Source: Escherichia coli (GTDB taxonomy: Bacteria; Pseudomonadota; Gammaproteobacteria; Enterobacterales; Enterobacteriaceae). From it: DNA of 64,000 bases. The notes under the pieces are model-generated. The model was not told the DNA's origin, made no database searches, and saw nothing but the letters and a program-made list of their open reading frames with translations. This document shows, one piece after another, positions 1-61,172 of this stretch. The DNA is taken from assembly GCF_050320075.1 (NCBI RefSeq), contig NZ_CP190018.1; one strand, given 5' to 3'. The translations under genes and the position numbers were made by a program. Numbering within the stretch: position 1 is the stretch's first letter; each line of letters opens with the position of its first letter.

Positions 1-311
1 TGAGCGGCTGGCAGGTTTTGCCAGCGGTTTGGACCCAGATGGTCACCACCCAGAATCAACGCATCCTGCGGGAAATTCAACGAGTCGGCGAGCTGACAAA
101 CAAAGCCGCGAAAATCGGCGGGCGTCATTCCGGTATAGCCGCCGAACTGGTCTACCTGATTGGAGGTTGCTTCAATCAGTAACGGCGTTTGGTTTGCACT
201 GGCGTAGCGGATTGCAGCCTCCAGCACCAGCGGATGTGCGGAACAAACGGCATAAATTCCATTTGTTTTGCCCGCTTTGTGCTGTCTCACCATTTCTGTC
301 AGATGTTTCAC
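1..311 (-). CDS. kbaZ: D-tagatose-1,6-bisphosphate aldolase subunit KbaZ, N-terminal part only (gene continues beyond window start)
   Basis: Minus-strand translation from GTG at 309-311 reads [52 protein letters not shown]..., recognised as KbaZ N-terminus; GGAGAGG RBS upstream; divergent from agaR as in the aga locus. Confidence 0.8.
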
Positions 312-28585: not shown

Positions 28586-28978
28586 TTACCACTTTTTATT
28601 CAGCAGGCGGTCGATGCTATACGCGCCCGGACCGGTAATTGCCAGCAGCAGGAATCCGCCAGAAATTGTCAGGTTTTTCATGAACATCAGCGAGTTGACG
28701 CCTTCAGCAAAGTTGCTGTGAAATAAAAATGCCGTCAGCAGCGTAAAGCCCGCAGTAAACAGGGCTGTGGTGCGAGTCAGGAAACCGAACAGGATTGCTA
28801 GACCACCACCAAACTCAAGCAGAATCACCAGCGGCAGCATAAAGCCTGGGACACCCATCGCTTCCATATATTGTTGGGTACCCGCGTAGCCAGTAATTTT
28901 TCCCCAGCCTGCGGTAATAAACAGAATCGGCATTAAAATGCGCGCTACCAGTACACCAACATCTTCTAATTTTTTCAT
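28586..28978 (-). CDS. yqjF: DoxX-family inner-membrane protein
   Basis: 130 aa from ATG 28978 (MKKLEDVGVLVARILMPILFITAGWGK...). Confidence 0.85.
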   Translation of the reverse strand: MKKLEDVGVLVARILMPILFITAGWGKITGYAGTQQYMEAMGVPGFMLPLVILLEFGGGLAILFGFLTRTTALFTAGFTLLTAFLFHSNFAEGVNSLMFMKNLTISGGFLLLAITGPGAYSIDRLLNKKW

Positions 28979-29163
28979 CATACTCTCCACTGCGCCACTC
29001 AGGCTGCTGATTGTTTTTTTGTGCAAGGGCGCGGTATTAGCGTCGTTGCTGTCGATGGAGAGAATCATAAACGTGGTGAATGATGAATGTTAGCAAGGAA
29101 AACTGTCAAAAATCTTCAAAAAATTTGAGGGATAAGGCCGGAATGGCTCCGGCCAGAGGGAAG

Positions 29164-29463
29164 TTAACCGCGAAGTTGTTGCTGCTTGAGGGTCGTTTTC
29201 ACCAGACGCCAGGCGCTCCATACGCCAAAACCGCGTCTGGCCCAGCGGACCAGCATATTAGGATGGCGAATCGTCCAGATCGCCATCACGCTACTGCCTA
29301 CCAGCGCCCAGGAGCGCAGACTTAGCAGCATATTCCAGCGACGATCGTAAGCGCCTGTTGCCTCCAGCCATTCACGACGACTGGCGGAAAGATCCAGCCG
29401 TTGTTGCTGGATCTGGCTCAGCAGTTGCGCCTTACGTCGTTCACGTTCGACTTTACTGCTCAC
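29164..29463 (-). CDS. yqjK: Uncharacterised protein YqjK
   Basis: 99 aa from GTG at 29461-29463 preceded by AGGAG; overlaps the yqjE 3' end by 11 bp. Confidence 0.75.
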   Translation of the reverse strand: MSSKVERERRKAQLLSQIQQQRLDLSASRREWLEATGAYDRRWNMLLSLRSWALVGSSVMAIWTIRHPNMLVRWARRGFGVWSAWRLVKTTLKQQQLRG

Positions 29464-29857
29464 GGGACTCCTCCTCGAGCAGCTGCCGATCGTTTGCCAG
29501 CTCATGGCGTGTATGGCGCAGCAGGGTGGATTTACGCGATTTACGTAACGTCCAGATACCGCCAATCAGTGCCAGTAGCAGCAACACCACGGTGGTGGCA
29601 ATCATCGCATTCAGGCGATATTGCGGATCAACCGCCCAAATAATCAGCACCATCAGGCTCATAAGACCAAATGCAGCGAAAAGCATCGTCAGGCCCAGCA
29701 TCAGTAAAAGTTGAAAGAGATTCGCTTTTTCCTCTTCCAGCTCCACCACCGCCAGCCGCAGACGTGTTTCCACCATTTCAACCATGATGGAAACAATTCG
29801 CTGCCCGATGCCCAGAACGCTTTTACCGGGCCCTTGCGCGTGATGAGTGTCCGCCAT
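29453..29857 (-). CDS. yqjE: Inner-membrane protein YqjE (DUF1469)
   Basis: 134 aa from ATG 29857 (MADTHHAQGPGKSVLGIGQRIVSIMVEMVE...). Confidence 0.85.
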   Translation of the reverse strand: MADTHHAQGPGKSVLGIGQRIVSIMVEMVETRLRLAVVELEEEKANLFQLLLMLGLTMLFAAFGLMSLMVLIIWAVDPQYRLNAMIATTVVLLLLALIGGIWTLRKSRKSTLLRHTRHELANDRQLLEEESREQ

Positions 29858-29859
29858 AA

Positions 29860-30165
29860 TTAACGACGCGACAGCAGAACGCCGAGCACTACACCGATTG
29901 CAGCGCCAATGCCCACGCCCGTCCACGGGTTTTCACGCACATACTCATCGGCACGCGCCGCCGCGACACGGGTTTGTTTGGCGATGGCATCACCGGTTTC
30001 ACCCAGGCGATAACGGCTCTGTTTCAGTGCCTGCTCCGCTTTGCTACGAATCTTACTCAACTCTTCTTTCGACTTCTCGCCAGATGAGCTAAGTACCTCT
30101 TCCAGCGTATCGGAAAGGGATTTCAACTCAGCACGCAGATGTTCCGTAGTGTGTTCTTTCGACAT
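29860..30165 (-). CDS. yqjD: Ribosome-associated membrane protein (ElaB/YgaM/YqjD family)
   Basis: 101-aa ORF with C-terminal TM anchor. Confidence 0.88.
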   Translation of the reverse strand: MSKEHTTEHLRAELKSLSDTLEEVLSSSGEKSKEELSKIRSKAEQALKQSRYRLGETGDAIAKQTRVAAARADEYVRENPWTGVGIGAAIGVVLGVLLSRR

Positions 30166-30202
30166 AGTTTTCTCCAGGTGAGTAAGTAGTGACTATTGTG
30201 AG

Positions 30203-30571
30203 TTAGTAGTCGCGCGCTTCCAGCTTTTTCAGCTCTTCCTGCGCTTCTGCCAGTTTCCGTTCGCGTTTGGCAATCTTATCGGCATCGCCTTTTTGCTTCG
30301 CCTCGGTTAAATCTTGCTGGCGTTCCGCCACCTCATCTTTCTGCTTTGCGATTTTCTTCTGATGATCGGCACGCAGCTGGCTATCTGAACAGTTGGCCCG
30401 GACTTCACTCAGGGCTTTATTCAGACCGTCAATACGATTCTGGTTTTGGTGTTTTTCGGCATAGCTGATCTCCTTAAGGATATTTTGCTCCTTTTCCTGA
30501 CACAGGGTAGTGGCATAACTACCGGCACTAAGAGCAAAGAGAGAAACAGCTAAAGCGATGCGGTATTTCAT
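30203..30571 (-). CDS. yqjC: DUF1090 periplasmic protein
   Basis: 122 aa from ATG 30571 (MKYRIALAVSLFALSAGSYA... signal peptide). Confidence 0.85.
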   Translation of the reverse strand: MKYRIALAVSLFALSAGSYATTLCQEKEQNILKEISYAEKHQNQNRIDGLNKALSEVRANCSDSQLRADHQKKIAKQKDEVAERQQDLTEAKQKGDADKIAKRERKLAEAQEELKKLEARDY

Positions 30572-30717
30572 TCTTGAACCTTCCATTGTGATTCGGACCT
30601 ATTACAAAGGAACGATTGTCCAGACAACGAAGCGGTAGTGTTAACCACCGCCTCATTAATCATAGACAGTTACGGTGAAATCACCAAAGTCAGTGATATG
30701 TTTCGGATAACAGGAAG

Positions 30718-31101
30718 TTATCCGAAGCGATGAGAGTTATCCCGCAACCGGGTCAGCCACTGCATAGCCTGACTATTATTGTCCTGCTGCGCGATGATGT
30801 AGCCATGGGGCAATGTTCTGTCGAGGACCGCTTTTGCGGCGGCACTCTGGTCGCTGGAGTCAAAGGTAATTAACAGAGTGTCATTTTTGGGGGTGATACT
30901 TTTGAAAGGAATGCCGTGAGCGTCAAGGTGATGCCAGATTGAAAAACCGTCTGGCATCGTTGTCCCTTGATGAACGGCACGAATCGCCAGCGTAGACTCT
31001 TGCTGGCGAACCGCGGACCAGGCCAGCAACAGTGTGCCGACCAGAAGTAAAACAGCGCCGGACCAGGCTAGCTGGCGAAGCGACATGCGAGGTATTTGCA
31101 T
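30718..31101 (-). CDS. mzrA: Modulator of EnvZ/OmpR
   Basis: 127-aa [37 protein letters not shown]... Confidence 0.88.
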
Positions 31102-31767: not shown

Positions 31768-32111
31768 TCATTATTCCTGGTGAATCGGTTAACGCCACGC
31801 TGGTTTTAAAAGATGCACTACCGCAATGTTATTGCTGTTTTGGTATGTTTTGCGGGTTTGATACATCAACACAGCCTGAACTATTCCCTGTTAAATCGTG
31901 AGATAAGAAAGCATTCAAAAGCATAAATTCAAATTGAATCTAATTGTAACAAAGGTCAACGTTGTTCGTTATCAAAATTACATGTCCGTAGAGTCTGATT
32001 TTGCTGATTGCAGGGGAGGGTGGCGAGAGGATTTACACAGGCTGACACTTTATACTTTTCGCTTACCGACGAAGCAAACAGGCGCATTGCAGCGCCTGTC
32101 GGATGGAAATT

Positions 32112-41459: not shown

Positions 41460-42446
41460 TTATAGTTTTACGCTATCTGCCGGAAAAATCACCCCAGTCT
41501 GGCGGCGGATCTCGGTCAGCAGTTTGGCGGTGATGCGACTGACCGCCAGCCCAGGATGATCCACCAGATGTTCATCCACCAGTTCAGCAAACAGCTCTGC
41601 TTCGTAGAGCATGGTATTAATATGCTGCGGTTGGGTGAGATCCTGCATCTGGCTGCCACGCGGAACAAAGCAAACTTTCTGGCATTCAGACAGTTTTTCA
41701 ATCACCAGCGATCCTGCTTCGCCCTGAATCTCGCTTGCCAGGACAGAATCGCTCACTTTTGAGTGCTGCAACGTAACGCTGAAATCACCGTAATCCATCA
41801 CCACCACGCCGTGGGCATCCACACCGCTTGCCAGCAAACTGGCGGTTGCCTGCACGCTTTTCGGTTCACCGAATAATGCCACCGCCGACGCCAGGCAGTA
41901 AAAGCCGATATCCATAATTGAACCGTTAGAGAATGCCGGATTAAAGGTGTTGGGATTCTCACCATCCAGGTAACGTTGATACCGCGAGGAATACTGGCAA
42001 TAGTTGAAAAAGACTTTACGCAGTTTGCCGACTTTCGGCAGTGCCTGGCGTAACAGATGAAAGTTCGGCAGGCTGGCGGTTTTAAATGCCTCAAACAGCA
42101 CCACCTGATTTTCCCGCGCACAGGCAATGGCGGCATCCACTTCCGCCAGATTCGATGCCAGCGGCTTCTCGCAAATCACATGAATTTTGTGGCTAAGGAA
42201 AAGTTGTGTCTGGGAAAAGTGCAGGGCATTCGGGCTGGCAATATACACCGCGTCAATGGCATCGCTTTCTGCCATCGCTTCCAGCGAGGTAAACAGATGC
42301 TCGACAGAAAAATCATTGGCGAAGTGCTGGGCCTGCTCAAGGCTGCGGGAATAAACGGCGGTTAACTTGTATTTACCGCTCTCATGGGCGGCCTCGACGA
42401 ACTGGCGAGTGATCCAGTTCGTACCAATCACAGCGAAACGTATCAT
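41460..42446 (-). CDS. ygjR: Gfo/Idh/MocA-family NAD(P)-dependent oxidoreductase
   Basis: 328 aa from ATG 42446 (MIRFAVIGTNWITRQFVEAAHESGKY...). Confidence 0.88.
   Translation of the reverse strand: MIRFAVIGTNWITRQFVEAAHESGKYKLTAVYSRSLEQAQHFANDFSVEHLFTSLEAMAESDAIDAVYIASPNALHFSQTQLFLSHKIHVICEKPLASNLAEVDAAIACARENQVVLFEAFKTASLPNFHLLRQALPKVGKLRKVFFNYCQYSSRYQRYLDGENPNTFNPAFSNGSIMDIGFYCLASAVALFGEPKSVQATASLLASGVDAHGVVVMDYGDFSVTLQHSKVSDSVLASEIQGEAGSLVIEKLSECQKVCFVPRGSQMQDLTQPQHINTMLYEAELFAELVDEHLVDHPGLAVSRITAKLLTEIRRQTGVIFPADSVKL

Positions 42447-47458: not shown

Positions 47459-49028
<1,570 letters not shown>

Positions 49029-49054: not shown

Positions 49055-59116
<10,062 letters not shown>

Positions 59117-59657: not shown

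Positions 59658-61172
<1,515 letters not shown>

Follow-up and report, generated by a model that had tools for sequence, protein, structure and literature searches.

The GTG start of yqjK, its overlap with yqjE, and a possible coupled series yqjD-yqjE-yqjK in Escherichia coli

Described coupled gene pairs and the yqj cluster

The overlaps trpE/trpD and trpB/trpA are classical examples of translationally coupled gene pairs in enterobacteria, and their genes meet at ATGA or TGATG junctions. Another established concept is that of termination-reinitiation junctions devoid of a Shine-Dalgarno (SD) sequence, in which the downstream ATG is found 1 to 2 nt beyond the upstream stop. Like trpE/trpD and trpB/trpA, the yqjE and yqjK genes of Escherichia coli lie on the same strand, with the start codon and the SD of the downstream gene placed inside the coding end of the upstream one, and the upstream stop following within a few nucleotides. 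Most yqjE/yqjK orthologs carry the canonical 4-nt NTGA or 1-nt TAATG overlap, as do the classical coupled pairs. Unlike in these pairs, the yqjE stop of Escherichia has moved 7 nt downstream, which results in an 11-nt overlap and goes together with a GTG start, and coupling of yqjE and yqjK is a prediction. The junction just upstream, yqjD/yqjE, resembles the SD-less reinitiation type: it reads TAA-TT-ATG, and a purine-rich SD before the yqjE ATG was found in none of the 81 sequences compared (81/81 without).

The window, by which we mean the whole stretch of 64,000 nucleotides that was analysed, is a segment of an E. coli chromosome running from kbaZ to nfeF. Gene coordinates in the window are those of the RefSeq/PGAP annotation of strain CFSAN061763, which were transferred. 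The window and CFSAN061763 are collinear and differ by few substitutions, except that the window has an IS1 inserted towards its left end. Several strains, including CFSAN061763, show 100% identity over a 1.7 kb yqj query (window 29000-30700), and a match search found the yqj region in 5,422/5,426 complete E. coli genomes.

The genes follow one another on the minus strand in the order yqjC, yqjD, yqjE, yqjK, then yqjF and yqjG. The first of these, yqjC (30203..30571), encodes a DUF1090 protein of 122 aa, and yqjD (29860..30165) a DUF883 protein of 101 aa associated with ribosomes and with the membrane. Next, yqjE (29453..29857), which has an ATG start, encodes a membrane protein of the Phage_holin_3_6/DUF1469 type, 134 aa in length; its Pfam match to Phage_holin_3_6 (E=3.5e-21) is a family resemblance only, and no holin function is claimed. 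Finally, yqjK (29164..29463) has a GTG start in the RefSeq/PGAP and K-12 annotations alike and encodes 99 aa of the YqjK-like family, residues 14-86 matching Pfam PF13997 with E=4.5e-25 and 88.3 bits (gathering cut-off, 28.1).

YqjE and YqjK have been described as proteins of the inner membrane whose function is unknown, and they are predicted to interact or to form a complex. YqjD appears in the literature as a ribosome-inactivating, C-tail-anchored membrane protein, and the yqjD-yqjE-yqjK synteny has already been noted there; more generally, the proximity of yqjE-like and yqjK-like genes to DUF883 genes is conserved. A scan of positions 28900-30800 for promoters and terminators gave nothing above shuffle expectation.

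The yqjK start codon and its ribosome-binding site

Read on the minus strand, the region of the yqjK start is ...CTCGAGGAGGAGTCCC GTG AGC AGT AAA..., where the GTG occupies positions 29461..29463. It is preceded by the SD-like sequence GAGGAGGAG (29468..29476, minus strand), which also codes for Glu-Glu-Glu in the C-terminal tail of YqjE. The first AGGAG of this sequence ends 8 nt ahead of the first base of the GTG, and the spacer counted from GGAGG is 6 nt. The duplex formed with the anti-Shine-Dalgarno has an energy of -11.8 kcal/mol at this GTG, while 0.2% of random positions in the window (n=2000) reach -10 kcal/mol.

A first-pass annotation of the window had placed the yqjK start at GTG 29461-29463, with AGGAG 8 nt upstream and an 11-bp overlap with the 3' end of yqjE. 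All three points are borne out. The motif is present within GAGGAGGAG; the overlap extends over 29453..29463 on the minus strand, from the start of yqjK to the yqjE stop TAA (29455..29453); and the start is the same in the sequence, in the PGAP annotation of CFSAN061763 and in the K-12 MG1655 record. In K-12 MG1655 (NC_000913.3), yqjK (b3100, NP_417571.1) lies at 3250077-3250376 and yqjE (b3099) at 3249683-3250087; the GTG, the 11-nt overlap and the junction sequence do not differ from those of the window. Over the 1408-nt yqjC-yqjK stretch, 23 substitutions separate K-12 MG1655 from the window, none of them at the junction.

An alignment of orthologs for start conservation, a check proposed in the first-pass annotation, strongly favours this GTG. 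The ortholog set comprises 80 loci, one per species, across Enterobacteriaceae, obtained with YqjE as query, and the yqjK homolog was located in each. All informative loci (79/79) have a start codon at the position that aligns with the yqjK GTG: 45 have GTG, 33 ATG and 1 TTG. The motif S-x-K-x-E-R-x-x-R-K-A is conserved right after it. In the DNA alignment of the yqjE/yqjK junctions, the 'TGA' of NTGA is invariant, and GGAGGA is kept in most of them.

The sole locus outside the 79 informative ones is that of Trabulsiella odontotermitis strain 01 (L028), where approximately the first 22 yqjK codons, which hold the conserved SSKxERxxRKAxLL segment, are deleted (L028:1890-1960). What remains of the yqjK frame resumes just past the end of yqjE, and three codons into it lies a possible ATG. 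A yqjE-yqjK fusion was considered for this locus and ruled out, as the translation shows a deletion in yqjK and a retained yqjE stop. Another strain of T. odontotermitis (L038) has a normal 4-nt yqjE/yqjK overlap.

Annotation, ribosome-binding site and orthologs are thus three independent lines that agree, and they support GTG 29463..29461 as the codon where yqjK would be initiated. As for published experimental data, the N-terminus or initiation peak of YqjK has no entry in TRAINSPOTTER Table S1 (N-terminomics), in Tables S2-S5 of tetracycline-inhibited ribosome profiling (TetRP) or in the INRI-seq supplements, an absence probably explained by the shortness of its tryptic N-terminal peptide, (M)SSK.

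Coupling of yqjD, yqjE and yqjK, and its alternatives

Among the 79 informative loci, yqjE and yqjK overlap by 4 nt in 44, by 11 nt in 11, by 8 nt in 11 and by 1 nt in 10, and are separated by a 2-nt gap in 3. The junction therefore stays within -2 to +11 nt in 79/79, despite indels that shift the relative frame of the two genes between lineages (Escherichia has an offset of +1, most other species one of +2). The 11-nt class is a lineage variant, made up of 11 loci from Escherichia and from the Citrobacter amalonaticus/sedlakii group, and in these lineages the tail of YqjE is extended to ...EEESREQ.

The yqjD/yqjE junction is an abutting one (29855..29862, minus strand): the yqjD stop TAA (29862..29860) is followed by TT and by the yqjE ATG (29857..29855). 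Of 81 sequences, 79 have this ATG 1-2 nt past the end of yqjD, and the other 2 have a 1-nt overlap. The sequence upstream of yqjE, ctgtcgcgtcgttaatt, is without any SD. Such an SD-less gene with its ATG 2 nt past the yqjD stop suggests termination-reinitiation, and the yqjD/yqjE junction would be a better candidate for obligate termination-reinitiation than the yqjE/yqjK junction. The ATG itself is confirmed by K-12 N-terminomics, in which the YqjE N-terminal peptide MADTHHAQGPGK... was seen (TRAINSPOTTER Table S1). For the yqjD N-terminus MSKEHTTEHLR, Ribo-RET/INRI support is entered in that table as well, and for yqjE the Ribo-RET/INRI field is blank.

The first-pass annotation had taken the overlap to suggest translational coupling in the yqjCDEK cluster as a whole. 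For the part that goes from yqjD through yqjE to yqjK, the geometry of the junctions fits this proposal. For the step from yqjC to yqjD it does not: yqjC is outside any coupling, because a 37-nt gap separates it from yqjD, and yqjD has an SD of its own (GGAG) as well as its own promoter, a sigma-S promoter reported inside yqjC.

For the three remaining genes, translational coupling is plausible. Ribosomes terminating at yqjD would initiate yqjE by termination-reinitiation. Those finishing yqjE would stop 8-10 nt past the yqjK GTG and cover its SD/start region, and termination at this place would favour either re-initiation or the unmasking of the yqjK start. The yqjD, yqjE and yqjK genes would then be translated as a coupled series. 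Taken together, we are confident of an ordinary yqjCDEK structure, as annotated, with the GTG start of yqjK (and, further away in the window, the TTG start of patA and the GTG start of kbaZ), in which yqjD, yqjE and yqjK probably form a coupled series. Given the tight junctions between these three genes, conserved across Enterobacteriaceae, work on YqjD can reasonably start from the hypothesis of matched and coupled synthesis, which is simple to test.

A structure in the messenger was also considered. In the minimum free energy (MFE) fold of a 121-nt context of the yqjK start (z=-2.08), a hairpin with arms CUGCUCG / UGAGCAG is predicted at 29455..29483 (minus strand). The SD would be in its loop and the UG of the yqjK GUG in its stem, and the yqjE stop UAA begins at the last paired base. 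Over 80 species, 68% of cells can form the pairs of this hairpin, versus 25-37% for slid controls, a comparison that is biased by the origin of the structure, taken from E. coli itself. Coding constraint acts on both arms. Covariation in the 80-species alignment was not above shuffles (double-change pairs, 210/500; covariation score, 64/500). The hairpin was not counted as evidence for coupling.

Alternatively, the starts may be as annotated and yqjK initiated independently, by de novo binding of 30S subunits, possibly on an internal transcript, in which case the overlap would correspond to compact packing of genes without coupling. We consider this possible, if on balance doubtful. The very strong SD of yqjK, at -11.8 kcal/mol, would be enough for initiation without help from yqjE; transcription start sites upstream of yqjE and of yqjK have been reported from RNA-seq; the hairpin that would mask the start lacks covariation; and in three species the two genes are 2 nt apart instead of overlapping. 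Against it stands a junction held at -2 to +11 nt in all 79 informative species in spite of frame-shifting indels. Moreover, the predicted YqjE-YqjK complex would favour matched synthesis, and the start-burying hairpin is more often pairable than its slid controls, with the E. coli bias of that comparison in mind.

A stricter form of coupling can also be envisaged, as an obligate relay: yqjD would be followed by reinitiation at the SD-less yqjE, and the ribosome terminating yqjE would open a hairpin-masked yqjK, so that stoichiometry is fixed. We regard such a relay as unlikely. The blank Ribo-RET/INRI entry for yqjE fits it weakly. If true, the relay would set the proportions in which the members of a membrane complex centred on YqjD, the ribosome-hibernation factor, are made.

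A different start of yqjK was considered as well, either at the in-frame ATG 29505 (29503..29505, minus strand), 14 codons upstream, for a protein of 113 aa, or at TTG 29565 (29563..29565, minus strand), 34 codons upstream, which is the longest-ORF start and would give 133 aa; the GTG would then be an internal Val codon. In the window, as in a small number of close relatives (Escherichia and the Citrobacter amalonaticus group), both candidates are in frame and open. However, neither has an SD (duplex energies of +1.9 kcal/mol for the ATG and -1.5 kcal/mol for the TTG). In 57/81 sequences, and hence in most related species, an in-frame stop occurs at most 13 codons upstream of the conserved yqjK start, so that codons corresponding to the upstream ATG and TTG of E. 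coli are unusable there, and 59/81 lack any start candidate upstream. Moreover, the Pfam YqjK domain begins at residue 14 of the 99-aa form, and GTG is used by all reference annotations. Both upstream starts were rejected, and we hold this explanation to be very improbable. Where a protein is taken to begin bears on its cloning and tagging, on proteomics databases and on structure prediction, and the membrane proteins concerned here are poorly characterised.

Lastly, the idea that the overlap is a programmed frameshift site producing a YqjE-YqjK fusion, to which only the overlap of two frames points, was rejected as next to inconceivable, given that the relative frame of yqjE and yqjK varies between species, three species have a gap, GAGGAGGAGTCCCGTGAGCAGTAA contains no slippery heptamer, and a start codon is kept at the junction in every species.

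patA, kbaZ and other features of the window

Besides the GTG of yqjK, the first-pass annotation had proposed two non-ATG starts elsewhere in the window, for patA and kbaZ, and both agree with the reference records. The patA (ygjG) gene, at 59658..61037 on the minus strand (459 aa), starts at TTG 61037..61035, which is preceded by GGAG with a 6-nt spacer. This is the start found in the PGAP annotation of CFSAN061763, in K-12 (TTG 3219494) and in published TetRP, where depth is 65.2/64.5/68.1 at the TTG versus 0/0/0 at the start annotated in 2006, 27 nt upstream (Nakahigashi et al. 2016, PMC4909307 Table S2, row 48). In the window, this older start is a GTG 9 codons upstream. The case is that of the described patA/ygjG re-annotation between the 2006 and 2014 K-12 records (PMC4909307), with the same TTG, the same N-terminus and no difference.

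As to kbaZ, of which the window edge leaves the 5' part (1..311, minus strand), the GTG start at 311..309 is preceded by GGAGAGGAAA and matches the PGAP annotation of CFSAN061763 as well as K-12 (GTG 3278914). It is the first possible start after an upstream stop at -7 codons, with no upstream in-frame candidate, and the SD energy is -6.4 kcal/mol at this GTG versus -1.5 at an ATG six codons downstream. The starts of yqjK, patA and kbaZ are all present in the reference annotation, in which they are already right, so that nothing in them is new and the annotation needs no change.

It had also been pointed out that the longest ORF starts elsewhere than the gene in seven cases, and in all seven it begins upstream of the annotated start, with an excess of 27 codons for garK, 4 for tdcD, 21 for tdcF, 40 for exuT, 51 for ebgA, 37 for patA and 21 for uxaC. 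The same situation is found in 24 of the 56 complete annotated CDS of the window; it is therefore an expected property of a mechanical track and not peculiar to the named genes. The longer ORFs are artefacts of a track that extends each frame mechanically to whichever start codon comes first behind a stop.

In ygjR (41460-42446, minus strand), the annotated ATG lies 6 codons downstream of the longest-ORF ATG, and this downstream ATG is backed by published TetRP (reads 63/89/63 versus 0). A fourth non-ATG start in the window is the GTG of yqiM (31789-31872, minus strand), a gene for a small protein of 27 aa.

Between fadH and ygjK, at 47459-49000 on the minus strand, the window carries a gene for a hypothetical protein of 513 aa (WP_049067546.1) with an unremarkable G+C content and with no Pfam or PADLOC match. 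K-12 presumably has different genes at this place.

There are three same-strand overlaps in the window: yqjE/yqjK, which at 11 nt is the longest, ebgA/ebgC (4 nt, 54806-54809) and prlF/yhaV (1 nt, 2664). The toxin gene yhaV contains, in its 3' part, the IS1 insertion (768 bp, 1526-2293), flanked by an 8-bp target duplication, GTTTTTTT, at 1518-1525 and 2294-2301. YhaV is cut after residue 123/154 and acquires the new tail VMLPTY*, and the antitoxin gene prlF (2664-2999) is intact beside it. The exact IS1/yhaV junction is present in only 2/5,426 complete E. coli genomes, those of strains YZLc1-3 (chicken) and Ec-U3 (human).
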